Source: Myxococcales bacterium
Lineage (GTDB): Bacteria; Myxococcota_A; Polyangia; Fen-1088
Length of the DNA stretch: 64,000 nt
NCBI GenBank assembly: GCA_025350815.1
Contig: JANXXE010000218.1
Span: 19,574-83,573, forward strand
Direction of reading: 5' to 3'
The notes below the pieces were generated by a model. It was given only the letters and a program-made list of their open reading frames with translations, searched no databases and had not been told where the DNA came from. The translations under genes were made by a program, and so were the position numbers. Positions 8,642 to 42,973 of the stretch are shown here, in pieces. Every line of letters begins with the position of its first letter. Position 1 is the stretch's first letter.

Positions 8642-8695
8642 CTGACCACGCGTGCACCAACCCCAGACGTTGCGGGCGCCGCACCCGCGCGATCG

Positions 8696-22114: not shown

Positions 22115-22711
22115 CTAGAACATGCGTTCGTCGACGACCAGGACATCACCTGGGAAGATCGCGACGTTGGGTGCCCGGCCCTCGCTAATGTCAGCGACGG
22201 GATAGGATCGGCTGACCACCGATCCCTTGTCCTCGCGCCTCAGCGTGACCTTGTTCTTCGCCGCGATTCCAGTGAATCCGCCCGCGGCCGCAATGGCATC
22301 GATGATGGTCATGTTCGAGAAGTACACCACCGCACCGGGTTTCAGCACCTGCCCCAGCACCGAGACCTTGCGGCTGTTCCATTCATGCACGGTCACGGTG
22401 ACCTGAGGATTCTTGATGAATCCGTCCTTTAATTTCTCCGTGATCATCGCCTGAACCTCGCCGCTGGTCATGCCCACCACCTTGATGCGACCTATCAACG
22501 GGTAGTCCACCATACCGTCGCCCGCGATCCGGTACAGCCCAGTCAGATCGCCCTCAAGGAAGACCCGGGTCTCAAAAACGTCGTCCACGCCCAGTCGCTC
22601 ATCGGGCGCCAGCGTCATGACCTCCGCGGGTACCGGCGCGGGGATCTGCCGCGAGGCGCATCCCACCTGCGCGATAAACAGCACGACGGGCCAGGCCCTC
22701 AAGCGAGTCAT
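22115..22711 (-). CDS. polysaccharide export protein (Wza/GumB-like, Poly_export + SLBB)
   Basis: A lipoprotein-like signal (…IAQVGCAS) is followed by ...GDGMVDYPLIGRIKVVGMTSGEVQAMITEKL... and a PGDVLVV motif typical of Wza-family exporters. The start is taken at the internal Met at 22711. Confidence 0.7.
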   Translation of the reverse strand: MTRLRAWPVVLFIAQVGCASRQIPAPVPAEVMTLAPDERLGVDDVFETRVFLEGDLTGLYRIAGDGMVDYPLIGRIKVVGMTSGEVQAMITEKLKDGFIKNPQVTVTVHEWNSRKVSVLGQVLKPGAVVYFSNMTIIDAIAAAGGFTGIAAKNKVTLRREDKGSVVSRSYPVADISEGRAPNVAIFPGDVLVVDERMF

Positions 22712-22774
22712 TGCCCCGGATTGTAGTCCGTCCAGCCAGTCGTCGCAATGTCGCGGCAATGTCGCGGGGCTCCT

Positions 22775-26385: not shown

Positions 26386-27720
26386 CTAGTAGGTAACGCC
26401 CAGGCGGGCGAAGACCTGCTGCTTGACGTAGTTGAAGCCGCCCATCGAGGTGACCCCAGTGGTCTGAAAGTCCGTGGTGTTCTTCATGAGCAGGTAGCCG
26501 ACACCTGCGTAAAACCACTTCTGTACCTGATAGTCGACCTGCAGGCCCGCCTGAAGAAACTGGTCACTACGACTGGCCCCGTTACCCGCAAGCTGGAATC
26601 CGTGATAGCGGCGAAATTCGTAGCGAGCGTGGGCCAATATAGACAGCTGCGAGCCGACCTTCTGTCGCAAACCGACGTAGGGGCTATCAAGATCGTAGAA
26701 AGTGCCGATGACAGAGTTCCGAAACTCATGGCGGTAGCCCACCACGAACTCCGTCAACTGGGTGATCTTGTAGTTGATCTCACCAAGCGCCGCCAGATTG
26801 CTGATACCCGTCGGATTGGTAGCGACGCCCTGGTAGAAGCCGGCGGCGTAACCAACAGCAAGATTCACGGATAGCTTTTCAGTAACGAGGCCACGGAGAC
26901 CGCCCATGACCCGGAAGGGAAACGAGTTCTCCTTGTGGTTGAGCGGATCGGAGTCCTTGTTGAAATAGCTAATAGCGCCCTGGGCCGCCTGAACGAAGAT
27001 CGCAGTCTTCGGAAGCCACCGCCAACTACCGTCGAACAGCAGCTCGTTCCCCATGAGGTTCGCGTACTTGAGGTCCGCGTTGTCGAAGACGTCGATGCCG
27101 TTGGTATAGCGGAGCAGCGCCTGCAGCCGACCACCCCCGGGGGCAGCTCGCACTTGCGCGCTGGCAACGTTGTTGTTCCGCGTTATGTTGGCCCTGGATG
27201 TTCCGTAGGGCGGCTCTTCTGTTCGCACGAACTGGTCGGCCAACAAAAAACCGTAGCGCTGACCAGCGCCCATCTCGGCGTTCCCCGAAATGGTGGGATT
27301 AAAGGCGCGCTGCTGCTTGGCCTCCTCGCCGCCACCGAGATACTCGCGGTACTGGAGCGATGTCGCCAGATCGTAGAAGAGATTTGACGGGGCCGCCCCG
27401 CCGCGGGTTGCGTTCGTGATCTCCGCGAAGGGGGTTACCCGCATAAGGGGAGCGGACACGGGAGCTGTGTCGCTGTAAAAAACGTTCGTATCGTAGCCCG
27501 CCTCGGCTCCGACACCCACGTGCAGCACGCTGTCATCGCTCAGCTTAACCCCTGTGTCCTGACCGATGGCGGCCTTGCCGGCGATCGACGTGCCCGTGAA
27601 ACTCGCCTGCGAAGTCACCGCTGCTGATTCCGCGGTCACGCCTGGGGCGGCCGAAGACCTCACAGCCCACAGGGAGGAGGAGGCAGACAGGAGGATGGGG
27701 AGGAGGAGACGGCGGCTCAT
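26386..27720 (-). CDS. outer-membrane beta-barrel protein (GltB/GltH/NfsB-like?)
   Basis: Signal peptide (LLLPILLSASSSLWA), alternating amphipathic beta strands, and a C-terminal aromatic end ...ARLGVTY. It is the last gene of the TPR operon. Confidence 0.55.
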   Translation of the reverse strand: MSRRLLLPILLSASSSLWAVRSSAAPGVTAESAAVTSQASFTGTSIAGKAAIGQDTGVKLSDDSVLHVGVGAEAGYDTNVFYSDTAPVSAPLMRVTPFAEITNATRGGAAPSNLFYDLATSLQYREYLGGGEEAKQQRAFNPTISGNAEMGAGQRYGFLLADQFVRTEEPPYGTSRANITRNNNVASAQVRAAPGGGRLQALLRYTNGIDVFDNADLKYANLMGNELLFDGSWRWLPKTAIFVQAAQGAISYFNKDSDPLNHKENSFPFRVMGGLRGLVTEKLSVNLAVGYAAGFYQGVATNPTGISNLAALGEINYKITQLTEFVVGYRHEFRNSVIGTFYDLDSPYVGLRQKVGSQLSILAHARYEFRRYHGFQLAGNGASRSDQFLQAGLQVDYQVQKWFYAGVGYLLMKNTTDFQTTGVTSMGGFNYVKQQVFARLGVTY

Positions 27721-27792: not shown

Positions 27793-28389
27793 CTAGATAT
27801 GGGGACTGGCCTGCTGCGGCCTATCAAGGGGCTGGTGATCGAACTTGGGGGTCGTCGTGTCGGTCGGCGTGATGTTGGGATCAATTGTCACCTCCACCTT
27901 CGTCGCGCCAACAAAGCTCAAATCTTCGCCGACGCACGCCTCGGCCTCGGCACCCAGGACCTGGGCCTTCTGGTGGACGATGGTGATGCGTGTGAATTCA
28001 TGGACACTGCCGGGCTCATCCTTGCGGCCAATGGCTTCCTGAACACTGCCCATAGCCTGATCGGCAATATTGAGATTCACTTTAGCTTGCACGAGCTTAT
28101 CTGCGAGACAGTTGAGCCGAATAATGTCTTTCTGCTTACGTGCCTGTTCCTGCAAAGACTGAATGCGGAGCAAAATCTCCTGTACGCGGGCGCGATAGTC
28201 GCGGCTCTGCGTCATCATGTCTTCCGCATTGAGTTTTGACTTCCGCGGCACCGAGATATCCACGTCAGTTGGCCCAGCTGTGGGGCCCCCAGCTGCGGGC
28301 GCACGTTGCGCTCCGGGCGGGGGCGTCTGGGCAAAGGCCTGATGTCCGACTAGGACGACTCCAACCAACAATTTGAATGCCCTCGACAT
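27793..28389 (-). CDS. secreted hypothetical protein
   Basis: Start taken at the internal Met 28389 (MSRAFKLLVGVVLVGHQAFAQ signal). Coding-like codon usage. No recognisable domain. Confidence 0.45.
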   Translation of the reverse strand: MSRAFKLLVGVVLVGHQAFAQTPPPGAQRAPAAGGPTAGPTDVDISVPRKSKLNAEDMMTQSRDYRARVQEILLRIQSLQEQARKQKDIIRLNCLADKLVQAKVNLNIADQAMGSVQEAIGRKDEPGSVHEFTRITIVHQKAQVLGAEAEACVGEDLSFVGATKVEVTIDPNITPTDTTTPKFDHQPLDRPQQASPHI

Positions 28390-28565
28390 GCGCAACCTCA
28401 GCTGGAAATTGGTCGTTCCATGATATCTGACTGCGCGCACTATAGGGTGGCAGAAGCGGGAGTGTCAACATCCTGTGCTGCTGAAACGTCCGCCGAAAGA
28501 CTGATGTTCCGCGAACCTAGCCCTGCGCTGGGGTGGCAGGTCACCAGTTTTCTTTCGGCCGGTCC

Positions 28566-29984
28566 TTACTGCGAAGACTGGAAGACGAAGGGATACGAGA
28601 CCTCGACCGCCCCACCGGACGGTGCCGGGAAGCGCCAGCGAGCCACGAGACCCTTGATGCAGCTCGCTACCTCGGAGTCGCCGATGCTGTCCTGCTCGAT
28701 GTCGACGCCCGAAACGGTGCCGGCGGCCGTAATCGTCCAGTGGACGACGATCTTTCCGCTGAGTGCCGGGTTGCGCTTCAGGGCGCGCTCGTAACAGGCC
28801 TTGATGGCGCCGATGCGCGCTTTCACTTCCTTTGCCACGAGGCTGGGATCCAGAGACCCATCGACGGCGGGGGCCTCGCTCTTCACGCTGCCGGTAACTT
28901 TCTTCTCGGCCGCCGCGCCGCCCGTGTCTGCGCCCGCAATGCCGCCGCCGCCGCGCAAGCCGCCAACGCTGGCGACCTTGCCACTGCCGCCGGTGCCGCT
29001 CTTTACACCGCGAAGGGCGCCTTGATCTGTGGCGACGGCCAAGCCGCCGACGCCCTGGAAGGCCTTTTCCTGATCGCGATCGACGTCGCCCTTGCCGAGG
29101 ACGTCGGCAATCGAGCCCTCGCCGTCAGACTTGGCGCCCAGCAACTTCAGAATGCCGGTGTTCTTGACCTGCTCGGCAAGACGGGCGCGGCGTTCCGCAT
29201 CCAGACGGGCCTTTTCCTCGGCCGCCTTGGCACGTTCCTCGTCCGTCAGTTCCTTCTTGGGCGCTTCGACCTTCTTCTCGGCGACCTTTTCCTTCTTCTC
29301 GGCCTTCTTCTCTTCTTTCTTCTCTTCGACCTTCTTCTCTTCCTTCTTCTTCTCTTCCTGCTTCTTGACGACCATCTTCACGAAGCGATCCGGGATCTCA
29401 TCGACGGCGGGTTTGCGCGGCCAGTCGACGCTGCGCAGATAGAGAATGAGCCCGAGGTGGGCCGCAAACGAGATCACGCTGATGGTGGTGAAAAACCAGT
29501 CGAGGTCGGAGGTTAGTGATCCACGCACCGACGCCGGAAGCTGCGGCCGCGGCTGCGGCGGCGGCGGCGTCACGAACTGGAAGAGGACGGTCATGTCGCC
29601 GACGCTGATCTTGCCGCGCGACCGTTCGTCGAGTGGCATGTTCCAGCTTTGGCCCTGCTTCTTGATCTTGCCGGTCTGCTTTAGCTGGGACAGCGAGATG
29701 ATTTCGTTGCCGATGGCGATCCGGGCATCCATCGCGTCAGCGAAGTGTGCGACGTAGCCCTTCGAGGTCTCTTCGAACAGCAGCCACTCGCGCGGCAGCG
29801 AATCCGAAGGGACGACGAATAGGTTCTTGGCTGACTGGCCAATCGTGATGTTGTCGCGCTTTCTGACCAGACGTTCATCGACGATGCGTCCGCCCTGGAT
29901 GATGCCAATGCGCAGCACCTTGGGCTTGGCGGTTGCGCTGGAAGCGGTCTGAGCTGGTTTGGGCGCTGCGGCCTGCGTCGTCAT
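28566..29984 (-). CDS. inner-membrane protein with K/E-rich periplasmic linker and TonB-C-like C-terminal domain (GltG/NfsG-like)
   Basis: A soluble N-terminal domain is followed by one TM (FFTTISVISFAAHLGLILYL). A (K/E)n low-complexity region comes next. The C-terminus ...GKIVVHWTITAAGTVSGVDIEQDS...WRFPAP...SYPFVF matches the TonB_C pattern. Confidence 0.6.
   Translation of the reverse strand: MTTQAAAPKPAQTASSATAKPKVLRIGIIQGGRIVDERLVRKRDNITIGQSAKNLFVVPSDSLPREWLLFEETSKGYVAHFADAMDARIAIGNEIISLSQLKQTGKIKKQGQSWNMPLDERSRGKISVGDMTVLFQFVTPPPPQPRPQLPASVRGSLTSDLDWFFTTISVISFAAHLGLILYLRSVDWPRKPAVDEIPDRFVKMVVKKQEEKKKEEKKVEEKKEEKKAEKKEKVAEKKVEAPKKELTDEERAKAAEEKARLDAERRARLAEQVKNTGILKLLGAKSDGEGSIADVLGKGDVDRDQEKAFQGVGGLAVATDQGALRGVKSGTGGSGKVASVGGLRGGGGIAGADTGGAAAEKKVTGSVKSEAPAVDGSLDPSLVAKEVKARIGAIKACYERALKRNPALSGKIVVHWTITAAGTVSGVDIEQDSIGDSEVASCIKGLVARWRFPAPSGGAVEVSYPFVFQSSQ
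29170..29390 (-). repeat. low-complexity cttcttctc (Lys/Glu codon) repeat region inside the GltG-like gene
   Basis: Encodes KKQEEKKKEEKKVEEKKEEKKAEKKEKVAEKK... The nucleotide repeats are visible at 29260..29390. Confidence 0.6.
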
Positions 29985-30005: not shown

Positions 30006-30344
30006 TTAAAAAGGCGCCTTCGAAACGCTGTCGATGATCTTGGGCAGGAAGTCCTGCTTCAATTCCTGCCAGTCGTAGTTGATGCTGGACTTCTGAAGGA
30101 CGTAGAAAGCCTCGGGCTTTTGGATTTTACCCTCGATTTTGATCTCTTCGGTAATTCGATAGACTTTTTTTCCGGTCGAGCCGCGCTCGATCTTCACGCC
30201 GGACCCTTGGGGCTTGCCGTCTGGACCGACTGGGGGCGCAGCCTTCGCGGCGCCTTTTTGGGCGAACGCGGCCCCTTGGGGGGCCAGAACCGAGATGAAA
30301 AGAAGGGCGCGCACGAATCGAGACATATTTTTCGACAGAGCCAT
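30006..30344 (-). CDS. small secreted/periplasmic protein (GltF/NfsF-like position)
   Basis: 112 aa with a signal peptide (ALLFISVLAPQGAAFA). Tightly packed between its neighbours. Confidence 0.5.
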   Translation of the reverse strand: MALSKNMSRFVRALLFISVLAPQGAAFAQKGAAKAAPPVGPDGKPQGSGVKIERGSTGKKVYRITEEIKIEGKIQKPEAFYVLQKSSINYDWQELKQDFLPKIIDSVSKAPF

Positions 30345-30352
30345 GGGAACCT

Positions 30353-31468
30353 TTACTTGGAACCCGCCGGGGCGGGGGTGGGCGGGACCGGCGCAGGGAG
30401 CGCCGGAGGGGCGGGCGCGGCGGGATCAGCGGGTTTTGGGGTATCCGCAGCCGGGGCGGCGGGGGCATCGCCGCCTGCGGGGGCCGCTTTGGCGGTTTCG
30501 GCGGCCTTGGCGGCTTTCGCAGCATCTTGGACAGCCTTCTGCGCCGCCCGCTGCTTATCCCGCTCCTCGGCCTTCTTGATGCGCTCGATGCGCTTTTCTT
30601 CCTTCTTGATGCCTTCCTGGGCTTCCAGAATGTAGGTGTCGGCGGGATCTTTCGGTGGAACACCGCCAGCCTGCTGCAGCATCTGCTTGTACTTCTGCAA
30701 GTGGCCAATCGCCGTGTTCATCTTGGCCGTGATGTCCATGTTTGGGATCTTGTCGGCGTCGAGGTACAGGATGCCCAAGTTGAAGACGGCGTCGGCGTAG
30801 TTCGGGAAAAGCTGGAGGGCTTTTTCGTAGGATGTCTTCGCCTTGTCGAAGTCCTTGAGGCCCCGGTAGGCGCTACCCAGATTCAGGTGCGCTCGCGAGT
30901 AAGCGGGTTGGAGCGCGACGGACTTTTCGAGGACAGGAACCGCCTCGCGGTAGTTCTTGACGGTGAGGTACTGCGCGCCGAGGTTGTTCCAGAAAATGGC
31001 GTTTTCAGGCCCCGCTTCCGTGGCCTTCTTGAGCTGCTCGATGGCACCGGGAATGTTCTTCCGCTCAAGCTCCATGAAGGCGAGGATCTGGTACATCTCG
31101 GCCTGGTCAGCGGCCGGGGCGTTATTCGCCTGCATCATCTTCCACAAGGTGCGCGTCCACTCGTACTTCTTCAGCTTGTAGTAGGCCTTGGCCATGATGA
31201 ACATGGCGGGGGTGTGGCGCTCGTTCTTGTTCAGGGCCGCCTTCGCCGCGGCTACCGCACCCCCAAAATTGCCGGCCTCGTATTGCTTCTTGGCGGCCTC
31301 GGTCTCCTCAGTCGGAATGGGTAGGGGCGGGGGTTCGCGCTTCTTCTTTCCGCCAGCCGCTGGCGCCGCTTCGACGGCCGGGGCCGGGGTCTGCGCGTAG
31401 GACGACGACGACCCGACGACGGAAAGCTGCCAACCCAGCGACAAGGCGACAAATCGCGTGATCTTCAT
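30353..31468 (-). CDS. TPR-repeat protein with signal peptide and Pro/Ala-rich C-terminus (GltE/NfsE-like)
   Basis: Start at Met 31468 (MKITRFVALSLGWQL...) forms an ATGA overlap with the upstream stop. Several TPR units (AKAYYKLKKYEW..., ...LGSAYRGLKDFDKAKTSYEKALQLFPNYADA...). C-terminal PAPA-rich tail. Confidence 0.6.
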   Translation of the reverse strand: MKITRFVALSLGWQLSVVGSSSSYAQTPAPAVEAAPAAGGKKKREPPPLPIPTEETEAAKKQYEAGNFGGAVAAAKAALNKNERHTPAMFIMAKAYYKLKKYEWTRTLWKMMQANNAPAADQAEMYQILAFMELERKNIPGAIEQLKKATEAGPENAIFWNNLGAQYLTVKNYREAVPVLEKSVALQPAYSRAHLNLGSAYRGLKDFDKAKTSYEKALQLFPNYADAVFNLGILYLDADKIPNMDITAKMNTAIGHLQKYKQMLQQAGGVPPKDPADTYILEAQEGIKKEEKRIERIKKAEERDKQRAAQKAVQDAAKAAKAAETAKAAPAGGDAPAAPAADTPKPADPAAPAPPALPAPVPPTPAPAGSK

Positions 31469-34400
31469 GGGGCCTCGATGGCGACTTTCTCGTCCTTGAT
31501 GAACGGGAACTCGTCGGGCAGGTACTTCGACAGCTTTTCGCGCGCTGACTTGACGTATTCGTTGGTCACACCCAGCTTCGACGCCATCTCCAGGGTGTCT
31601 CGCCACATCTTCTTGGCCTCGTCTTCGATGGGGGTCACGAACTGGAAGATTGCGTCCTTGTATTGGCCTTCGACAACGCCGCAGTCGTCCGGATTCGCCT
31701 TGCAGGCCATCTTGGCCAGCTTCTTGAGATCGTCGGGAGGATTGTCGGCCGCCTTGATGAGCTTCTGAGAGAACTCGTAGAAGATGTCGCCGCTGCGCAG
31801 GTACGAAGCGAGCGACCAGGTGGCGTACTTGTACTCGAAGATTTTCTGGTATTCCTCGCGCAGGGCCTTGGCCGAGGCAACGAAGTCGTCGAAGGTTTTC
31901 TTGATCTGCTCCGGCTTACCCTTGAATTCGAGCTTGCGGACCTGGAATGCCTTGAACTTCTCGTCAAGAAGCAGGTAGTCGGCTTTGGCGGCGGCGCCCG
32001 CGGCTTCGGAGGCAGCGGGCAGCTTGCGGCTGATGAATTCATCGCGCACGCGCTTGTAGGCGGCGAAGGTGGCCTTCTGGTCTTTACCCTGCTCGGCGAT
32101 GGTCGCCAGCTTCAGCAGCGAATTCACGACCGTCGGGCCGGCCGGCTGCTGCGAGCTATAGCGTTTGATCAGGTCGTTCAGGCACTTTCTGAGCTTGTCG
32201 GTGTCCTTCAGCTTCTCGTAGGCGGAACAAGAGGCTGCGAAGGCCTCGGATGAATCGAGGGGCTTATCGGCGACGGCATCGGCGTAGCGCTTATAGAAGT
32301 CGGCGGCCCGCGCGTATTGCTGGTCGTTATCGAGCAAGATGGCCGCCTGGGCCAGTGCCTCCTTGCGGTGCTCGTATTCGGCGAACTTGGGATCGGTGGC
32401 GACCTTCACGAAGCCCGTGACGGCCTGTTCGAACTCGAAGAAGCGGAAGTGGTTACGGGCCGCGTTCCAGATAGCGTCCTTGACCAGCACGCTCTCGGGG
32501 TATTCGCGCGCCAGGCGCTCGTAGCATTTCGTCGCCTCGCCGTACTGGAAGAGCTTCTCGTAGATGACGCAGACGTTGTTGAGGTTACCCGGGGCGTCCT
32601 GATCCTTCGGGTTCGCGTTGATCATGTCGAGCAGGTCGAGCGCCAGACTGATGTCGATGTCCGTCGAGACCTTGCTCGGCCCCGCTGCGACGGGCTTGCC
32701 ATCGGGGGTCGTGCCGGGGGTCGTGGCGGTCCCGGTTACGATTGCGATGCCGCCGTTGCCTTCCTTACACTGCGTGATCTGTTTGTTGGTGCCCTTCTCC
32801 TCGTTCTCCATCGCCAGCGTCAAGCGCTTGGAGATGATGGCCGACTTGACGGAGGTCCGAATGCCGTTGAAGCGGGCGGTGTATTCGGCCGCCTCCTTCG
32901 ACGGTGACTTGCCACAGACAGATCCACCGAACTGATCAGCGACCAGCAGAAGTTTACCAAGCGCGCAATCTTTTTGCTCTTCGTCCTCGATCAGATAGTC
33001 GATGAAATAGGTTTCCAGGATGGCGGAGTAGGCCTTGAGGCCCGTCTCGGGGGCGGAGGTGCAAGAGAAGTCCGCCACCTCCTGCAGGCGCGTGCGAGCC
33101 ACAGGCCAGTTCCGGTAACGCAACATGAGGACGGCGGCGGCATATCGAAGACCGGGCACGCGGGGATTGTTGGGCAAGGTCTTGACGAACCAGTCGAGGG
33201 AGACAAGGTACTTCTGATAAACGTCCGGCATCTCCAGCGGTGTGACGGGAGGCTTGGTGTTTTTCTGGTCGGGAATCGGGGGGTCTTCCAGCTTCTTTTC
33301 GTCCTTGAGCTTGGCAATCATGCCCTCGTAGGACTTCATGATCTGGACGGCCGCTTCTTCCTGGTACTTGTTGTCCAGGCTTGAATCGCGCACGGCGGTG
33401 TAGGCGACAATGGCCTCGGGCAGGCGATCCGCGTAGTACAGCGTGTCGGCGTAGGACTCGCTGAACTCGTAGGTGCTTTTCGAATTCGGGTAGACGGTCA
33501 GGTAGTTCTTGTAAAGTTCGGCGGCGTCGCCGTACAACTTCTGGCATTCCTGAAGCTTCTTCAGGTCGGACGGGCTCTCCCGCCACTTGTCCTTGCAGGC
33601 CTGGGCGATGATGTGAACGTTCTGGGCAGCAGCCTGCAACGCCTGCTCGGCAAGCTCAATGCCCAGCGCCAAGGCGTCGGGGTCGGCGCGGTTGGCCTTG
33701 TACCATTCGCTGCCTTTTTGATACGTGCGGCCGAGAATCTCGCGCTCTTTCGAGGCGGCCGCCATGTTGCGGTCTTTTTCGTAGGCCTTGACGATCTTGT
33801 CCTGCACCTGCGGCGCTTCGGCGGTCGTTGGCCACTTCTGCAGCACGGACCGGTAAACGGCGATGGCCTCGGGATACTTCGTCGAATCGAAGTAGATGTC
33901 GCCGAGTCGCTGGAAGACTTCCTTGACATGCGGCTCGCTCTCGCGACCCTTGTAGAAGGTCTGCGCCCGCTGCAAGCCGGTCTCGGGGTCAGGATTGGTG
34001 TCGCCATCCCAGTCGGGTTCAGAAAAGCTGACGCCGAGGTACTGAACAGCCTCGGGCCGAAGGTCGGAGCCGAATTTCTCACCGCTGGCCTTCTTGCCGT
34101 CGGCGAACTTCACGAGGTTGTCGAATTCCCGGATGGCCTCGGGAAACCGGTTGTCGCGGTAATACGACCACGCCAGCTTGTAAAGTGCCTTGTCGTAGTA
34201 GGAGGAATCCTTGATGGCGACCACGCGGCTGTAAGCCGAGATGGCGGGCCCCAGTTCGCCCGCGTCGAAGTGGGTCTCACCGACGCGCGTCCAGGCCTCG
34301 GCCAGGAACTTCGAGCCCTTCCGGACCGGAACGCAGTCCTTGTAGACGTCAACCTTCACGCCCGTGCGGGTCGTGGGTGACGGCGGTGGGGGGGGATCGA

Positions 34401-35031
34401 GCGGCTTGTAGCGGTTGGAACAGGTGAGAGCCAACAGCGCCTGGTTCGATTCGGCCTCCTTGCCCATTTCAGCAAGGCAGTAGCCAAGCAGGTAGTAGGC
34501 CGCGTCGAGCAACCGATAGGTGGGGAAGTCGGTAAGAAGACGACGGTAGAGGTCAACCGTGGGACCGTAGTCGGGTTTCGGTGGCTGCCCGTCGGGTGGT
34601 GTCGGGGACTCAAGAGCCTTCTGGAATGCCTCCTGGGCGGTGAGGTACTCGTCAGACGACTTTTCGTAGTAGAGCTCGGCCAGCCGAAACATCGCGTCCG
34701 GTGTCCAGCGCCGATCGTTGGGGTACTTCTTGAGGAAACCCTCGAACATGGCGATCGCGTCGAGGCGTCGCTGGCGTTCCTCCTTTTCGCTTTGGTTGAT
34801 CTCGGCTTCGTACTTGGACTTGATGGTCTTCATCTTGTCCATGTAGACGCGCTTGATCACGCTCGTGGCGGCGCTGCGGTAGCCCTTGACGGCTTCGGCA
34901 TAGCGCTGAACATCCTGGGCCATCTCCTGCAGAAGCTGAGGATTGGTCGGTGGCTCAGGAGCGGCGTGAGCGACGGGGGAAAGCGCGAGCAACGCGACGA
35001 GGCCGAGTGAGGCGCGATGAGGCAACCTCAC
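31465..35031 (-). CDS. giant TPR-repeat protein, 1188 aa, signal peptide (GltD/AgmU/NfsD-like)
   Basis: Signal peptide (LVALLALSPVAHA) followed by more than 20 TPR-like helical pairs along the entire length. Confidence 0.6.
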   Translation of the reverse strand: MRLPHRASLGLVALLALSPVAHAAPEPPTNPQLLQEMAQDVQRYAEAVKGYRSAATSVIKRVYMDKMKTIKSKYEAEINQSEKEERQRRLDAIAMFEGFLKKYPNDRRWTPDAMFRLAELYYEKSSDEYLTAQEAFQKALESPTPPDGQPPKPDYGPTVDLYRRLLTDFPTYRLLDAAYYLLGYCLAEMGKEAESNQALLALTCSNRYKPLDPPPPPSPTTRTGVKVDVYKDCVPVRKGSKFLAEAWTRVGETHFDAGELGPAISAYSRVVAIKDSSYYDKALYKLAWSYYRDNRFPEAIREFDNLVKFADGKKASGEKFGSDLRPEAVQYLGVSFSEPDWDGDTNPDPETGLQRAQTFYKGRESEPHVKEVFQRLGDIYFDSTKYPEAIAVYRSVLQKWPTTAEAPQVQDKIVKAYEKDRNMAAASKEREILGRTYQKGSEWYKANRADPDALALGIELAEQALQAAAQNVHIIAQACKDKWRESPSDLKKLQECQKLYGDAAELYKNYLTVYPNSKSTYEFSESYADTLYYADRLPEAIVAYTAVRDSSLDNKYQEEAAVQIMKSYEGMIAKLKDEKKLEDPPIPDQKNTKPPVTPLEMPDVYQKYLVSLDWFVKTLPNNPRVPGLRYAAAVLMLRYRNWPVARTRLQEVADFSCTSAPETGLKAYSAILETYFIDYLIEDEEQKDCALGKLLLVADQFGGSVCGKSPSKEAAEYTARFNGIRTSVKSAIISKRLTLAMENEEKGTNKQITQCKEGNGGIAIVTGTATTPGTTPDGKPVAAGPSKVSTDIDISLALDLLDMINANPKDQDAPGNLNNVCVIYEKLFQYGEATKCYERLAREYPESVLVKDAIWNAARNHFRFFEFEQAVTGFVKVATDPKFAEYEHRKEALAQAAILLDNDQQYARAADFYKRYADAVADKPLDSSEAFAASCSAYEKLKDTDKLRKCLNDLIKRYSSQQPAGPTVVNSLLKLATIAEQGKDQKATFAAYKRVRDEFISRKLPAASEAAGAAAKADYLLLDEKFKAFQVRKLEFKGKPEQIKKTFDDFVASAKALREEYQKIFEYKYATWSLASYLRSGDIFYEFSQKLIKAADNPPDDLKKLAKMACKANPDDCGVVEGQYKDAIFQFVTPIEDEAKKMWRDTLEMASKLGVTNEYVKSAREKLSKYLPDEFPFIKDEKVAIEAP

Positions 35032-37322
35032 TTGTCCTCCTGAAGCAATGCGTGGAAGTCGTCGTCGATGGCCTTCAGCTCCTGCTTTTGCTGCGTGATG
35101 AGCTGCGTGAGCTTGGAGGTCTTTTGATCCTTGAGACCCCAGGAGACGTCGATAAGACCGACGTCAGACTGCACAACAAGATCGTAGAAGCGGTCGGTCA
35201 CTTTGCCGAGGACTGCCTGCGCGAGGCCACCGCCAAGAGCCTGCGATTCGCCCAGCAGCGATGAGAAGCGACCCGTCGCCGCCTGGATCTGAATCTTCTC
35301 GGCCGCGAGTCGTTCTTTGATCGAACCAAGGCGGCGCTCGGCTGCGGCATCGACGCGACCGTCGAAGTTCTGAAGCTGTGACTGCACAAGTGACGCTCGG
35401 GTGATCACGCCGGCGAGTGCATCGAACTCGCCACGCGCTTCGGGGCTCATCTTGTTGCGGACCTTCTGGTAGATCTCGTATTCGCGACCCATCACGGACG
35501 CCAGTCGTCCGGCCGCGTTGCGCTCTCCATCGGCGGTCACCGAGCCAGCCAGGCGAGTGGCCTCCAGCACCTCCTCGTGGATCCGGTCGTGCGCTCCCCG
35601 CAGAGCTGCGATCGAAGCCCGCAATTCGGCCACCGGACGCTTGAGCTCCTCGGGCCGAATCTTCTGTTCGGTTTTCGAATTGCTGTAGTACTGCTCGACG
35701 GCGATCAGTTCCGCCTCCATGGTCTGGATCGCGACATAAGACTCGGCAAGACGTGTCTGAAATTCCTGAATTTGGTTGCGCGCCACGTCCTCGCGGTTGC
35801 GGCTGTCTCCCTCTGCGGAAGGCAGGGTCTCGATTTGCTGTTCCAGGCGGGCGCGATCAAAACCCATTTCGTCCAGGGCCACGGTTTCGGTGGACGACAG
35901 GTGGGGTGCGGCCAGGCTTCGGGCGCGTTCCAGGAACCTGCGCCTGATGTCCAGGGCCTGGCTCAAAACCTCGTTTGATCGAGATCGCGCGGCTGCCAAA
36001 TCGGGAAAGATCGCGATCTTTCCTTCGCCGTTTACGACCCGCTCCAGCCGACCGATGGTTTGCTCGGTCTCCCGGATGCCGCGTTGAAGTTCGCCCACCT
36101 CACTGGCCAGGTTGACCATGCGGGTTAAATCGGGATCAGCCTTGAGCCATCTGACCGCCACCGGCGGTACGAACAAGGCGATGTCGAATCGTTCGAGACC
36201 CTTGCCGATCAGGGACTCGAAGTAGTGGGGTTCCGACTGTGACCGGGCAAGCGCGGACTTGAGTTGGGTGTGAATGGGCTCGAATTCCTCACGGGCCGAG
36301 CCAAAGATTTCGTTGGCCTGGAAATAGTTGTTGATACGCAGGTTAAGGTTGCCCATCAGGAGCCGCAGTTCCGGGGCTTCGGGACTGTTGGGGCTTTGCA
36401 GGAGCATGAGGTCGAGCGCGCGGTAGGCGGCCTTGTAATCCTTGGCCTTGATGGAGTTCCAGGCCGATTCGTACATCGCGTCAGCGAAGTACTTGGATTG
36501 GCGGCTTATGGCGGAATAGAGGTCCTTGGCCTTGTCGGCTTGGCCGCGTTCGTAAAGGAGGCGGGCGATGGCAAGACGGGCCAGATCCTGAATGTCATTG
36601 TCAGCGTCGCTGCGCGGCTGGACTTTGAGAACGGCGTCGAATCCCGTAGCGGCAGCGGCCAGATTGCCCTTCTTGACCTGGGTCGTGGCGAAGAAGTACA
36701 GCCCCTGCAGGTAATAGGGATTGTCGGTCCCGATGGCGGAAAAAGCCGCCAACGCCTCGTCGGTCCGATCGCGGAAAAAAAGGTACTTGCCCTTGACGTA
36801 CGGAACCGACGGTTCGAGCTGGTTCGACGGAATCTTATCAAGCCGCGCCAAGTATTCCTCGACGTTGTCGTAGTCGCCGGTGCGCAGGGTTAGCTCGACC
36901 AGGCGCTGTAGAGCACTTTGTTCCTTGCGCGAACCGGTGTTCCGCTTGATGGCCTGCTGGAAGTAGGTACGCGCCGAGTTGTAGTCCTTGCTTTGATAGA
37001 GCGACTCACCCAAAAGCACCAACGCGTCATCCGCCGCCCTGGACCCAGGCCATTTCTCCAGCACATCGAGCAGGATGGTCGCGGCGCCCACGTAGTTGCC
37101 CAGGCTGTAGTAGCCTTCAGCCTCGATGACGCGGCGGTCGGGCGCGTTGATGTCCGGCGCCGGCGCGTCCCGTAGCTCAGCCGTGAGCACGCGGACCCGT
37201 TCTTCCAGGTCGATCAGGCTGCGGTTCGCATCATCGATCCTGTCGTCAGCACGACCGCCCCGGACCGGAACGATCAGAAGCGCCAGGACGGCAAGCGCAA
37301 GCTGCCATTTCGTCAGACCCAT
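35028..37322 (-). CDS. TPR-repeat / coiled-coil protein with signal peptide, 764 aa (GltC/NfsC-like)
   Basis: Signal (LALAVLALLIVPVRG), an N-terminal TPR array and a C-terminal long coiled coil. ATGA-coupled to the downstream giant TPR gene. Confidence 0.55.
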   Translation of the reverse strand: MGLTKWQLALAVLALLIVPVRGGRADDRIDDANRSLIDLEERVRVLTAELRDAPAPDINAPDRRVIEAEGYYSLGNYVGAATILLDVLEKWPGSRAADDALVLLGESLYQSKDYNSARTYFQQAIKRNTGSRKEQSALQRLVELTLRTGDYDNVEEYLARLDKIPSNQLEPSVPYVKGKYLFFRDRTDEALAAFSAIGTDNPYYLQGLYFFATTQVKKGNLAAAATGFDAVLKVQPRSDADNDIQDLARLAIARLLYERGQADKAKDLYSAISRQSKYFADAMYESAWNSIKAKDYKAAYRALDLMLLQSPNSPEAPELRLLMGNLNLRINNYFQANEIFGSAREEFEPIHTQLKSALARSQSEPHYFESLIGKGLERFDIALFVPPVAVRWLKADPDLTRMVNLASEVGELQRGIRETEQTIGRLERVVNGEGKIAIFPDLAAARSRSNEVLSQALDIRRRFLERARSLAAPHLSSTETVALDEMGFDRARLEQQIETLPSAEGDSRNREDVARNQIQEFQTRLAESYVAIQTMEAELIAVEQYYSNSKTEQKIRPEELKRPVAELRASIAALRGAHDRIHEEVLEATRLAGSVTADGERNAAGRLASVMGREYEIYQKVRNKMSPEARGEFDALAGVITRASLVQSQLQNFDGRVDAAAERRLGSIKERLAAEKIQIQAATGRFSSLLGESQALGGGLAQAVLGKVTDRFYDLVVQSDVGLIDVSWGLKDQKTSKLTQLITQQKQELKAIDDDFHALLQEDK

Positions 37323-37341: not shown

Positions 37342-38181
37342 TCACTTCTTGCTGGTACTGGTCGCGGCCCCGCCCTGCGGCGCGAGAACGTTCACGCGAA
37401 ATTCGATATCGGGCTTGTCTTCCATGTTGGTGGCAATGCTGCCTTTTTCGTAGCCAACTGCGGTGACGATCGTGGCCTTACCCTCGCCGGCAATGAACGT
37501 GTGACTGGAGCGTACAGCGAACTTGTAGCCACGGAGATAACTAAACACGCCGAAGCCATTGCCCTGGTACACCAGTTGAACCGTCAGCGTGTGCGAGCCC
37601 GGCTGGATGGCGCCGTTGTACACGTCGAACTCGGTCATCTCGGACAGCTTCCCGGTGTCCTCCGCCTTGGAGAAGATCTGAACCCCATCGAGCGCGTAGA
37701 CGACCTTGATCAGGCGGAACGAATTGCTCATCTCGTTCTTGTGGCGAATCACGCCGCGCGAAGCGCCGATGACACCGCCCAAAACCGTTTCCTTAAGAAC
37801 GTTCAGGCGCAGCTTGGTGCGAAAGACCTGCTCTTTGAGCTCGTTCACGCTGCGCTCAAGGGAACGGAGTCGGATGATGTAGGCACCAGCGTCGCTGCCC
37901 GCCCCGCCGGCGGCAGGCGGCCCCGCGGGTGGCGGGGCCCCGGTGGCAGAAGGTGGCGCAGCGCCGGGCGCCGGACTGGCGGTCGACGGGCCCGGTAGGC
38001 CCGACGGGGTGGCCGGAGCCGCGGCGGCAACCGCAGCAGTGACCGCAGGAGCGGCTCCAGCGGCGGAAGGAACGGCGGGGTTGGCGCCGGTATTGGCCTT
38101 GGGCGCTTGGCCGTAGGCAGTACTGGTGGCACCAAGGACGGTCATCAGTCCCAGCAGCCCCCAGGTTCGCAGCAGTCTCAT
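37342..38181 (-). CDS. secreted protein with Pro/Ala-rich linker and beta-rich C-terminal domain (first gene of operon)
   Basis: Start at the internal Met 38181, preceded by a GAGGGA ribosome-binding site. Signal MRLLRTWGLLGLMTVLGATSTAYGQ, then about 90 aa of P/A-rich sequence, a coiled coil, and a beta-strand-rich domain. Confidence 0.5.
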   Translation of the reverse strand: MRLLRTWGLLGLMTVLGATSTAYGQAPKANTGANPAVPSAAGAAPAVTAAVAAAAPATPSGLPGPSTASPAPGAAPPSATGAPPPAGPPAAGGAGSDAGAYIIRLRSLERSVNELKEQVFRTKLRLNVLKETVLGGVIGASRGVIRHKNEMSNSFRLIKVVYALDGVQIFSKAEDTGKLSEMTEFDVYNGAIQPGSHTLTVQLVYQGNGFGVFSYLRGYKFAVRSSHTFIAGEGKATIVTAVGYEKGSIATNMEDKPDIEFRVNVLAPQGGAATSTSKK

Positions 38182-38456: not shown

Positions 38457-39530
<1,074 letters not shown>

Positions 39531-39859: not shown

Positions 39860-40180
39860 TTAGGCCTTCGCCCCGGAGATGGCCGTGATCTTCAGCGCAG
39901 TGAAGGGCTGACGGTGGCCGGTCTTGCGGCGGTAACTCTTTCGCCGCTTGTATTTGAAGATGATGATCTTCTTGCCCAGGCCCTGTTCCAGGACCTCGGC
40001 CTCGACCTTCATACCCGGGACGTGGGGACGTCCTAGGGTCACGCCACCGCCGTCGTCGGCGAACATAAGTGGGTCAAACGTCAGCTTATCCCCAGCAGAC
40101 GCAGGCAGCTTCTCCACGCGCAGGGTTTCCCCTTCGGCCACGCGGTACTGCTTTCCTCCGGTTTCGATAACGGCATACAT
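39860..40180 (-). CDS. rplU: 50S ribosomal protein L21
   Basis: [25 protein letters not shown]... is canonical L21. The start is taken at the MYAVI Met rather than the upstream in-frame ATG. Confidence 0.9.
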
Positions 40181-40257
40181 GGTTCTTGGCTCCAAGCGAG
40201 TCGGCTAATTTAGAACAGCCTACGTCCCTGTCAAGCACTTCCTGGGAAACTGGGAAA

Positions 40258-40671
40258 CTATCCCTTTCGGGCCCGGGCGCCTGGCTTGGTCTTGGCGGCG
40301 CGGCGGTCGGCGCGGTACTTCGCAATCTGGTCCTTCGCCACACCCTTGTGGCTGCTGCACACCATTCCAAAGATGGGCGCGGCGACATTCTTGCAGCCGG
40401 GGACCGGACAGAATTGCTTGGGTCGCCTTCGCCTCGGTGCGCGGCGCGCTGCCGGAACAGAAACCGCCGATGAAATGCCGGGGCGGTTTTTTGGCGGGCG
40501 ACCACGCCGGCGTGGAAGTCCGAGTGCCCCGCCAGCGCCCAGCGCAGACAGCAGAGCCGCCTGCACCCTTTCAGTGGCCCGTATTTGGACGGCAACTGCA
40601 AGCCGGGTCACGAAACCGTCGACCAGGATTCTTAGATCGGAATTGAGGCCGCCCGCGTTGCGGTTTGTCAT
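40258..40671 (-). CDS. hypothetical small basic protein with AT-hook (RRGRPPK) and C-terminal CxxC..C..H cluster
   Basis: Only the 3' half has high third-position GC. The N-terminal half is doubtful and the true start may be internal. Confidence 0.25.
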   Translation of the reverse strand: MTNRNAGGLNSDLRILVDGFVTRLAVAVQIRATERVQAALLSALGAGGALGLPRRRGRPPKNRPGISSAVSVPAARRAPRRRRPKQFCPVPGCKNVAAPIFGMVCSSHKGVAKDQIAKYRADRRAAKTKPGARARKG

Positions 40672-40839
40672 TGGATGCCCGGGAGAATGGTGCGACTACC
40701 TTTTGAAGTAAAGGCATTTTGCGGACGGGTCGCACTGCTTTTGCTTGACCGCCATCGTTGCGCGAACGATAGATCGGCCTCGGACATGGCTGCCTCAGAG
40801 CAATTGCCCCCGGCGGGCATTTCAAAAGTCGTTTCGAAC

Positions 40840-42942
40840 ATGAACGGTGGAGATCTGCGCGCCCAGCTTTCCCGTTATTCCGATATCGCCTTGGCGGCGC
40901 TGGTCGTTGGCATCGTCGGGATGATGATCATTCCGCTGCCGACCTTCTTGCTGGATCTGTTGATTTCTCTGAACATCGCCGTTTCCGTCACGTTGCTGCT
41001 TATTGCCATTTACGTGAGCGATGCGCTGAAGATAGCCACGTTCCCGTCGCTGTTGCTTATTACGACCTTGTTTCGCCTGGCACTGGAGGTGTCCGCGACG
41101 CGGCTGATCCTTCTGAAGGCCGATGGGGGCGAGGTCATTCACGCCTTCGGCAATTTTGTCGTTGCCGGAAATCTGGTCGTCGGTGGGGTTATCTTCTTTA
41201 TCTTGACGATCATCCAATTCGTGGTGATTTCGAAAGGCGCCGAACGCGTGGCCGAGGTCGGGGCGCGCTTCACCCTGGATGCGATGCCCGGAAAGCAGAT
41301 GTCCATCGACGCGGAGCTGCGCGGGGGGCACATCGACCACCACGAGGCGCGGCGGCGGCGGGCCCTGTTGACGCGAGAATCGCAATTCTTTGGCGCCATG
41401 GACGGCGCGATGAAGTTCGTGAAGGGCGATGCGATCGCCGGCGTGGTGGTGTTGGTCACCAATATCGTGGGCGGCCTGATCATTGGTATGGTTCAGCGCG
41501 GCCTGGACGCGGGCGCCGCTGCGCGGACGTATACCGTGTTGACGATCGGCGAAGGCCTGGTCGCGCAGATTCCGGCACTTATCATCTCGACCGCGGCCGG
41601 TATTATTGTCACGCGCGTGTCGTCGGAGGAGGAAGGCGGACATCTGGGCCGGGACATCGGCCTGCAGATCCTTGGCCAACCGAAGGCGCTGGGGATCGCA
41701 GGAGCCCTGTTGTTGGCAATGGCACTGGTGCCGGGTCTTCCCACTGTGCCGTTTCTGTTGCTGGGGCTGGTCCTGTGTTTTGTGGCTTATCAACTGCCGA
41801 CCCTGGGCCGAGACCCGTCGTCAGCCACTTCGGACGATACGTCACAGGGTGGCGCCGCCGCCCGCGGCCCTGCGACGCGCGATGGGGCAGCGGGCCGGTC
41901 AGAAGCGCTACCCTTGCTGGCGCCCATCGCGATCGAACTGGCCGGCCCCCTGGCGGACGAGGTACTGGCGGGCGCAGGCGGGGCACGTCTGTTGCGCGAG
42001 GTCATTCCGGCGCTGCGCGAGCGATACTTTGCCGAGACCGGTATCGTCCTGCCTGCGGTCAGACTGCGACCCATCGTTGGTGCGCTGAACGACGGTGGCT
42101 TCGTGATTCGTCTGAACGAGGTGCCGATGGCCAGGGGCGAGGTCGTCCCGGGTGGGGGGCTGACCTTCGAAACCCCCGCGCGGTTGGCGGCAGCGAACGT
42201 GCCGTCGAGGACCACCGTGTATCCGGACGGGACGGCGGCAGCGTGGATTGCACGGGAAGATCTGGCGGCGGCGCGGGTGAACGGCATCGCGGTCCTCGGG
42301 ACTGAGGAATTCATCGCCGCCCATTTGTTGCAACTGGTGCGGCGTTACGGCCATGAGTTCGTCGGCGTCCAGGAAGCGCAGGCTTTGCTCGACGGGATCG
42401 AAAAGACCCAGCCGGCCCTGGTACGGGAAGTCGTTCCCAAGCTGGTCTCGCCCATCTTGCTGGCCGATGTCTTGCGGCGCCTTGCCGAGGAGCGCGTGTC
42501 GCTGCGCGACCTGCGAGAGATTCTGGGGGCGCTGGCGCAATGGGCACCGCACGAACGAGATCCGGTGGCGCTGACGGAACACGTGCGGGCGGCTTTGCGC
42601 AGGCAAATCACCCACCAGTATGCCGGCGCGGCCGGGACGCTGGGGGTGTTCATGCTGGACCCAGTTATCGAGGACACGGTTCGAGAGGCGATTCACAAGA
42701 CGGCCTCGGGAAGTTACCTTGCGCTAGAGCCAGGGCTGGCGCGCGACATCGTAATGGCCGTGCGCCGGGCGATCCCGGCCAGCAACAGCATGCCGGTCCT
42801 GGTGACGAATGCCGACATCCGCCGTTATGTGAAACGCCTGGTCGAAGGTGAGCTGCCCGGCTTGGCCGTGCTGTCGTTCCAGGAGCTGTCGCCCGAGACG
42901 CAGCTGCAGCCTCTGGGCCGGGTCAGCGTCGCGGAGGCGTGA
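40840..42942 (+). CDS. FHIPEP-family export-gate protein (FlhA / SctV homolog)
   Basis: Start at the MNGGDLRAQLSRYSDIALAA Met. Eight TM helices with ...FPSLLLITTLFRLALEVSATRLIL... and the FHIPEP signature GARFTLDAMPGKQMSIDAEL. Large C-terminal cytoplasmic domain. Confidence 0.85.
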   Translation: MNGGDLRAQLSRYSDIALAALVVGIVGMMIIPLPTFLLDLLISLNIAVSVTLLLIAIYVSDALKIATFPSLLLITTLFRLALEVSATRLILLKADGGEVIHAFGNFVVAGNLVVGGVIFFILTIIQFVVISKGAERVAEVGARFTLDAMPGKQMSIDAELRGGHIDHHEARRRRALLTRESQFFGAMDGAMKFVKGDAIAGVVVLVTNIVGGLIIGMVQRGLDAGAAARTYTVLTIGEGLVAQIPALIISTAAGIIVTRVSSEEEGGHLGRDIGLQILGQPKALGIAGALLLAMALVPGLPTVPFLLLGLVLCFVAYQLPTLGRDPSSATSDDTSQGGAAARGPATRDGAAGRSEALPLLAPIAIELAGPLADEVLAGAGGARLLREVIPALRERYFAETGIVLPAVRLRPIVGALNDGGFVIRLNEVPMARGEVVPGGGLTFETPARLAAANVPSRTTVYPDGTAAAWIAREDLAAARVNGIAVLGTEEFIAAHLLQLVRRYGHEFVGVQEAQALLDGIEKTQPALVREVVPKLVSPILLADVLRRLAEERVSLRDLREILGALAQWAPHERDPVALTEHVRAALRRQITHQYAGAAGTLGVFMLDPVIEDTVREAIHKTASGSYLALEPGLARDIVMAVRRAIPASNSMPVLVTNADIRRYVKRLVEGELPGLAVLSFQELSPETQLQPLGRVSVAEA

Positions 42943-42973
42943 CAGCCGTTCACCGGGCGCTATAGTCGCGCGC

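Follow-up and report, generated by a model that had tools for sequence, protein, structure and literature searches.

The closest described relatives of the gene discussed here are two paralogous proteins of Myxococcus xanthus, GltG (PglI, MXAN_4867), the transducer of the Agl-Glt gliding machine, and NfsG, a component of the Agl-Nfs spore-coat machine; both belong to a family of inner-membrane force transducers resembling TonB and TolA. GltG consists of 640 amino acids (aa), with a Pfam FHA domain at residues 26-90 (PMC3169522). In a structural model of the M. xanthus machinery, this N-terminal FHA domain binds the cytoplasmic scaffold GltI at six sites, another FHA domain adjoining the transmembrane (TM) helix (residues 330-348) is docked to the AglR5QS motor, residues 371-494 form a disordered spacer, and a C-terminal domain (CTD) resembling that of TonB contacts GltD and GltF (PMC11761067). 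The AglR5QS-GltG complex was compared there with TolQ5R2-TolA. Two-hybrid interactions with the motor protein AglR were shown both for GltG (PMC3169522) and for NfsG (PMC3858216). The nfsA-H genes lie together in one cluster that lacks paralogues of I, J and K, and the Nfs machine acts on a polysaccharide exported via the Wza homologue ExoA (PMC3858216). The gene in question lies at positions 28566-29984 of a 64-kb stretch of contig JANXXE010000218.1 (the window), which derives from an uncultured member of the Myxococcota (Polyangia) that recurs in metagenomes. Its product is very probably the inner-membrane transducer, of GltG/NfsG type, of a Glt/Nfs-like trans-envelope machine operating in uncultured Polyangia.

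Family, domain layout and genomic context

A search of a 5.8-billion-protein collection with the window protein returned 1387 matches, and the best 120 of these are 461-475 aa long and share 69-86% identity with it. The gene itself was found with 100% identical DNA in two Logan contigs from other sequencing runs, the contigs being 99.97-99.99% identical to the window. The family is already labelled generically in public annotations, e.g., as [quoted passage not shown] or, in JGI, as "outer membrane biosynthesis protein TonB", and the window gene adds a short form to it. The NCBIfam GltG model (NF033760) is matched with E 9.5e-57 and 192.9 bits, with aa 4-471 aligned to profile positions 184-648 of 650. 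The model of the AgmX/PglI C-terminal domain (NF033768) is passed at aa 378-469, with 106.6 bits against a cutoff of 40. Both matches support the GltG-like identity that had been proposed from the sequence in the initial annotation.

The layout proposed at that stage (N-terminus inside, single TM helix, spacer, domain of TonB-CTD fold) was borne out by AlphaFold2 (AF2) modelling and fold comparison. The first AF2 model, based on a multiple sequence alignment of 46 sequences of ~77% identity, gave confident predictions for no more than the TM helix, one further helix and the CTD; aa 1-67 were unmodelled and no FHA match was obtained. The second model was built on an alignment of 104 diverse family representatives and reached a mean pLDDT (predicted local distance difference test) of 80.6. 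It was this rebuilding on diverse sequences that recovered aa 1-67 and the FHA fold, a beta-sandwich at aa 21-140 with pLDDT of ~97. According to the structure model, there is only one such domain in the protein, adjoining the TM helix, and its counterpart in M. xanthus GltG is the TM-proximal "central FHA"; the Pfam scan gave no FHA match for this protein. A cytoplasmic N-terminal domain had been foreseen correctly, whereas its FHA fold and the absence of the extra N-terminal FHA domain of GltG had gone unremarked.

Between the FHA-fold domain and the membrane lies a proline-rich juxtamembrane motif (Table 1), which is retained as PPPxxPxPxLP in the wider family. The predicted TM helix that follows carries an SxxxH signature of the TonB/TolA type. 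Within S172-F-A-A-H176, the serine and the histidine do not vary among 46 close homologues; among ~148 family representatives, serine occupies its position in 101 and histidine in 73, with glutamine replacing the latter in a further 31. The same signature is formed by S16/H20 in TonB and by S18/H22 in TolA.

At the other end of the protein, aa 361-470 form an alpha/beta domain with pLDDT of 93-98 in the second model, and fold comparison identified it as a TonB-CTD fold. The TonB_C-like character of the C-terminus, as originally suggested, holds by fold and at the level of the family, since Pfam TonB_C is matched at E<=0.01 by 65 of 104 representatives, but the window protein alone fails the profile cutoff. 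Some motor-linked relatives (loci L064 and L065, described below) pass TIGR01352, with 33.2 and 27.8 bits, respectively, against a cutoff of 27.1. Two cysteines of this domain, Cys397 (28794-28796, minus strand) and Cys442 (28659-28661, minus strand), are retained by 141 of 146 representatives and may form a periplasmic disulfide, a bond for which canonical TonB CTDs are not known.

The segment between the spacer and the CTD is rich in glycine and alanine (26 G and 14 A in the 108 aa of positions 276-383). Its length is 108 aa in 115 of the 120 closest relatives, with variation of +/-1 aa, and many of its columns are invariant among the 46 homologues. In the second AF2 model, aa 277-355 are of low confidence, that is, disordered in isolation. 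The combination of predicted disorder, fixed length and invariant residues would be expected if the segment folds upon binding a partner. Residues 428-543 of M. xanthus GltG, which correspond to it, were modelled as wrapping GltD (PMC11761067), and by analogy the Gly-rich segment is probably the GltD-binding stretch, folding onto this partner.

The genomic context points in the same direction. The window gene is co-operonic with genes for GltC-, GltD-, GltE- and GltF-like tetratricopeptide repeat (TPR) and adaptor proteins. Eight tightly packed genes follow one another on the same strand, encoding, in order, a 279-aa protein, the GltC-like, GltD-sized, GltE-like and GltF-like proteins, the GltG homologue, a 198-aa protein and a 444-aa putative beta-barrel. 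This order is kept in most of 78 related loci from species-level metagenome-assembled genomes, and a GltF-like gene lies directly upstream of GltG in nearly all of them. In the relatives L064, L065, L067 and L078, the space between the GltF-like and the GltG-like genes is occupied by one MotA/TolQ/ExbB gene and two ExbD/TolR genes, and the insertion is partly present in L073 and L076; the motor-linked relatives share 35-43% identity with the window protein. The presence of motor genes beside a GltG homologue in relatives speaks strongly, at the genomic level, for a probable partnership of the family with a motor of the AglRQS type, and it agrees with the two-hybrid results for AglR-GltG and AglR-NfsG mentioned above. 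The motor-in-cis arrangement has been lost from the clade of the window, and the motor for the window protein is assumed to be encoded elsewhere in the genome, as in M. xanthus. The search for ExbBD/TolQR/AglRQS-type genes was thus successful beside the homologue in distant relatives, but not in the window. With the GltC/D/E/F operon and the motor genes of distant relatives, an energy-transducing, periplasm-crossing role, proposed at the outset, is the best reading of this protein.

There are also observations that weigh against this assignment. The 192.9 bits obtained with NF033760 are far from its equivalog cutoff of 650 bits, and the ~183 N-terminal profile positions left unmatched represent the N-terminal FHA domain that binds GltI in the M. 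xanthus model. Both TonB profiles remain below threshold (PF03544 TonB_C, 17.1 against 24.6 bits; TIGR01352, 23.5 against 27.1 bits). No MotA/ExbB or ExbD gene was detected in the 64-kb window by tblastn with the MotA and ExbD proteins of L064 and L065 (best E 0.11), and Pfam scans of the plausible small open reading frames (ORFs) of the window revealed no motor genes. The 279-aa and 198-aa proteins, which occupy the "GltA" and "GltH" positions, match no family in Pfam or NCBIfam, the Glt models there included. Finally, the organism is uncultured, and the interactions in the mechanism considered below are carried over from work on M. xanthus and from in-silico models. A score below the equivalog cutoff, together with the unmatched first ~183 positions, indicates a homologue rather than an equivalog, and on profile evidence the product is best described as a short-form GltG/NfsG homologue, not as the GltG equivalog.

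The window protein and M. xanthus GltG are homologous over everything from the TM-proximal FHA domain onwards. The window protein shows the same order of FHA domain, TM helix, disordered spacer, GltD-wrapping segment and TonB-CTD-like domain, and it has GltD-E-F neighbours upstream. However, it is 472 aa long rather than 640 aa and lacks the N-terminal GltI-binding FHA domain; its cluster is without gltI/gltJ-like genes, and GltC is encoded within the operon, whereas in M. xanthus it belongs to the separate G2 cluster. A tblastn search of the window for further copies of the N-terminal and C-terminal domains found none, so there is no GltJ-like paralogue nearby. The glt/nfs duplication was placed in a terminal deltaproteobacterial branch (PMC3858216), and the Polyangia gene is therefore more likely an undifferentiated or co-orthologous form of Glt/Nfs. 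A few members of the family (P0178, P0204 and P0214; 922-937 aa) are of approximately double length; their GltG-like part is confined to aa ~470-935, the C-terminal half, and the ~470 aa that precede it have no family assignment.

The similarities to TonB raise the question of whether the protein is a genuine TonB paralogue that, with ExbB and ExbD, energises TonB-dependent transporters for nutrient uptake. It shares with TonB the N-in single TM helix with SxxxH, the CTD fold and a loosely constrained, periplasm-spanning spacer; its relatives are linked to genes of the ExbB/ExbD family, some of them reach TonB_C thresholds, and the JGI name for homologues is that of TonB. However, the window protein itself scores below the curated cutoffs of both TonB models, its best family is GltG, and its AgmX/PglI tail is well above the cutoff. 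The cytoplasmic FHA domain is foreign to TonB, as is the conserved Gly-rich segment of 108 aa. In the related loci, the gene is always syntenic with genes for GltC/D/E/F-like TPR proteins rather than with those for TonB-dependent receptors; its presumed partners are periplasmic TPR proteins and not TonB-dependent barrels. In the window, where a non-exhaustive set of ORFs was scanned, no TonB-dependent receptor came to light. The spacer is also without the prolines of the (EP)n(KP)n type, though at least 15% Pro is found there in 62 of 128 relatives. A TonB paralogue is thus highly improbable, and the window gene is a GltG/NfsG-family transducer, not a TonB.

TolA offers a second comparison. 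Its domain II is resembled by the spacer of the window protein, which is charged, K/E/A-rich and provided with a helix. If the protein were the TolA-like arm of a Tol-Pal-type system, serving outer-membrane integrity or division constriction, the matches of neighbouring TPR proteins to YbgF/CpoB models would be explained as well, and the published likening of AglR5QS-GltG to TolQ5R2-TolA would fit. The YbgF matches, however, are below cutoff and reflect generic TPR similarity, while the specific matches are those to GltC, GltE and GltG. The locus lacks a Tol-Pal context, as no TolB or Pal homologue was found among the cluster genes scanned; moreover, the TolA match of the window protein is weaker than the TonB match, and TolA has no FHA domain. 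This makes a TolA arm extremely improbable. The kinship of this protein with TonB and TolA is one of mechanism and structure, not of family, and the closest known proteins are GltG and NfsG.

For the GltG/NfsG-type transducer, a mechanism can be proposed by analogy with M. xanthus. The FHA domain and the SxxxH-containing TM helix would dock on a proton-driven motor of the AglRQS type, consisting of a TolQ-like pentamer and a TolR-like plug. Proton flow would drive a conformational stroke, which would be passed through the periplasmic part of the protein. The charged spacer of ~70 aa, composed of the 36-aa K/E tract and the conserved helix, would cross the periplasm and peptidoglycan. On the far side, the GltD-like TPR protein is probably the surface onto which the Gly-rich segment folds, and the TonB-like domain may dock on GltD/GltF. 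Together, they would grip the GltD/GltF/GltE TPR assembly, which GltC would link to the outer membrane.

The charged spacer

The extreme K/E linker noticed in the initial annotation was confirmed. Positions 206-241 contain 16 K and 12 E in 36 aa, i.e., 78% K+E, and the full 70-aa stretch 206-275 reaches 57%. This is the only site in the 64-kb window at which a 36-aa stretch attains 50% K+E in any of the six frames, and such uniqueness shows that it is not a chance feature. The tract has pLDDT below 50 in both AF2 models, the low-confidence part of the second one being aa 216-240. A rigid single alpha-helix of the ER/K type was considered for the tract and rejected: no helix was modelled at aa 206-246 in either case, and prolines occur there in close relatives. 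The charged helix that follows (aa 248-275, ending in AERRARLAEQVKN) was modelled in both cases, and its A263, R265-R268 and other residues are invariant in 46 homologues.

At the DNA level, the tract had been described as a cttcttctc nucleotide repeat, and this description stands only in part. At 29289-29379, Tandem Repeats Finder detects imperfect arrays with periods of 12, 15 and 27 (77-80% matches; scores, 76-92). On the other hand, the longest exact direct repeat in the tract is 16 nucleotides (nt) long and non-tandem, and the codons used are AAG, GAA and GAG. The "cttcttctc repeat" is not a clean microsatellite but a tract of purine-rich codons, produced incidentally by the use of AAG, GAA and GAG.

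It had also been proposed that the linker varies in length between strains and in this way tunes the periplasmic span, which would make it a hypervariable, slippage-prone module. Some features of the tract would fit this proposal. The DNA is of low complexity with an imperfect tandem structure. Among the 120 closest relatives, the length of the TM segment, of the post-TM segment and of the CTD is the same throughout, and the K/E tract is the sole internal stretch with insertions or deletions, apart from the +/-1 aa in the Gly-rich segment. Moreover, 44% of the pairs that are at least 97% identical elsewhere differ by 1-2 aa in the linker. The amplitude of these changes, however, is tiny. The stretch 206-275 spans 63-74 aa in the 120 relatives (standard deviation 1.6), and in the pairs at least 97% identical elsewhere the linker differs by 0.5 aa on average and never by more than 2 aa. 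Three independent assemblies of this organism carry an identical gene, and no length polymorphism in whole repeat units, of the kind seen at slippage-type contingency loci, was found among the close relatives compared. The constancy extends beyond close relatives. In 138 full-length representatives of clusters at 50% identity, the median linker length is 67 aa (10th-90th percentiles, 56-78), and the distance from the TM helix to the CTD is 197 +/- 12 aa in the 128 cleanest of them, the window protein having 197; this length is maintained even at 30-45% identity. The exact repeat of 16 nt, non-tandem as it is, does not favour slippage either. Strain-to-strain tuning by a hypervariable linker is therefore very unlikely, and the comparison across relatives shows a linker of near-invariant length. 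Slippage-type indels in the K/E tract do occur, but they are small and bounded to a few residues.

Composition behaves differently from length. Among the 128 representatives, the spacer contains at least 50% K+E in 22 and at least 15% Pro, as in TonB, in 62; others are neither K/E- nor Pro-rich, being, for example, rich in Ala, Pro and Arg. The spacer in the window is the most K/E-rich flavour of the family spacer. Near-constant length combined with a freely drifting composition indicates stabilising selection on spacer length, and the K/E tract is an indel-prone spacer with relaxed sequence on which such selection acts. In annotation, the K/E repeat should accordingly be treated as a length-conserved spacer rather than a variable one. 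The family as a whole can be seen as a natural experiment, in which spacer length is conserved and composition is free, and it could guide linker-length work on GltG of M. xanthus.

The operon and its neighbours

The coordinates of the features discussed are collected in Table 1. The GltG homologue is preceded by an AGGGGA motif resembling a Shine-Dalgarno sequence, and the gap to the stop codon of the preceding small gene is 21 nt. M1 is almost invariant among the 46 homologues. The ORFs spanning 28566-29984 on the opposite strand are the usual antisense ORFs of GC-rich DNA.

Table 1. Positions of the GltG homologue, its parts and the neighbouring genes (coordinates refer to the window, except for the motor genes, which are given in the coordinates of the respective loci)
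Feature	Position	Strand	Basis and remarks
GltG/NfsG-family gene	28566..29984	-	472-codon ORF plus stop, ATG start; NCBIfam gliding_GltG
Cytoplasmic FHA-fold domain (aa 21-140)	29565..29924	-	AF2 beta-sandwich
Pro-rich juxtamembrane motif TPPPPQPRPQLP (aa 139-150)	29535..29570	-	Columns T139-P150 invariant or nearly so in 46 homologues
TM helix (aa 163-185) with S172-x3-H176 motif	29430..29498	-	AF2 helix, pLDDT 95-98
K/E tract (aa 206-241)	29262..29369	-	Imperfect cttcttctc-type purine/pyrimidine tract, 78% K+E
Charged alpha-helix (aa 248-275, ...AERRARLAEQVKN)	29160..29243	-	AF2 helix in both models
Gly-rich segment, presumed GltD-binding (aa 276-360)	28905..29159	-	Conserved; AF2 pLDDT <50
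TonB-CTD-fold / AgmX-PglI C-terminal domain (aa 361-472)	28569..28904	-	Conserved Cys397/Cys442 pair
First cluster gene, secreted 279-aa protein	37342..38181	-	Signal-peptide-like N-terminus after M46 of a 324-codon ORF; 279 aa by the gene caller; synteny
GltC-like TPR protein (764 aa)	35028..37322	-	NCBIfam gliding_GltC, E 5.8e-16; synteny
GltD-sized TPR protein (1188 aa)	31465..35031	-	Best TPR match at aa 281-308; synteny
GltE-like TPR protein	30353..31606	-	NCBIfam gliding_GltE, E 9.5e-13; TPR families; synteny
Small GltF/CglF-like protein (112 aa; gene caller, 106 aa)	30006..30344	-	Weak NCBIfam CglF match, E 0.033
Conserved 198-aa secreted helical protein	27793..28389	-	Signal-like N-terminus; downstream of GltG in relatives
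444-aa putative outer-membrane beta-barrel	26386..27720	-	Weak EpsL match, E 6e-4; signal peptide; C-terminal ...GVTY
Short OPX protein (Wza-like, Poly_export + SLBB, 214 aa)	22115..22759	-	Pfam and NCBIfam, EpsY-like
Motor genes in relatives	L064 7766-9765; L065 8007-9873; L067 ~7952-9797; L078 ~7753-9779		MotA/TolQ/ExbB plus two ExbD/TolR

The GltD-sized protein is close to M. xanthus GltD in both length and the position of its TPR match, the latter protein having 1191 aa and a TPR at 280-306 (PMC3169522). The first protein of the cluster, of 279 aa, combines an Ala/Pro-rich linker and a coiled coil with a C-terminus rich in beta structure. The labels "GltA" and "GltH" were considered for this protein and for the 198-aa one, and were dropped, being without family-model support; the two proteins were judged by library profiles, not by direct comparison with Glt/Nfs A, B and H sequences.

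Directly upstream of the operon lies obg (38457-39527, minus strand), which encodes an essential GTPase and is kept in most of the related loci that reach that far. In the 125-nt gap between the GltG stop codon and the next gene, a sigma-70-like promoter sequence, TTGACA-18-TATAGT (11 of 12 consensus positions), is found at 28439-28468 on the minus strand. Sites of this type are not enriched over shuffled sequences in the region, and this one is only a hint of a possible internal promoter. Farther upstream, in general family scans, no other type III secretion genes were noticed near a full-length gene of the SctV/FlhA export-gate family (40675-42942, plus strand; TIGR01399, 782 bits, above cutoff). 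This gene adjoins a 171-aa ORF (40086-40601, minus strand) and an M16 peptidase gene (42848-45778, plus strand).

Polysaccharide genes and the output of the machine

A short outer-membrane polysaccharide export (OPX) gene follows directly after the gene of the 444-aa barrel in 26 of the 40 related loci with enough sequence, including distant loci that contain motor genes; examples are L001 (12365-14188) and L064 (12625-14660). In the window, the OPX gene is located 3.6 kb from the barrel gene, with inserted sugar-nucleotide genes between them, inside a large locus of the Wzx/Wzy type. A composite translocon that combines a short OPX protein with a barrel of 18 strands was described for myxobacteria (PMC9601211). 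Judged by this gene linkage, the 444-aa barrel is probably the partner of the short OPX protein, and the two look like such a composite polysaccharide translocon.

This linkage bears on the output of the machine. The resemblance to Nfs is suggested by the missing GltI-binding FHA domain, by the lack of GltI/J-like genes in the cluster and by the arrangement in a single compact operon, a likeness by description; the OPX/barrel pair linked to the window operon also recalls the link of Nfs to the Wza homologue ExoA. As the GltI-binding FHA domain and the GltI/J-like genes are absent and the OPX/barrel link is present, polysaccharide handling is slightly favoured over gliding. A bolder proposal, which is offered tentatively and is rather doubtful, is that the window contains an example of a widespread minimal Agl/Glt-type machine of uncultured Polyangia, an Nfs-like, motor-driven polysaccharide handler partnered with OPX and barrel proteins, and not a gliding motor of the focal-adhesion type; its spacer would serve as a periplasmic ruler (~197 aa from the TM helix to the CTD). 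In such a machine, the chemistry of the spacer may be free, that is, K/E-rich, Pro-rich or other.

Whatever its output, the uncultured Polyangia include a large clade with a compact one-operon Glt/Nfs-type system, in which GltG lacks the platform-binding FHA domain and an OPX/barrel pair often follows the operon. This compact system bears on the ancestral function of the motor-transducer family, a question left open by earlier work (PMC3169522).

The polysaccharide locus that adjoins the Glt-like operon occupies positions 1-26367 of the window and is of the Wzx/Wzy type, with genes of the nonulosonic-acid type. It encodes two Wzy_C proteins, Wzz/GNVR/BY-kinase, glycosyltransferases, NeuB, two cytidylyltransferases, WecB and a PseB/Polysacc_synt_2 fusion.

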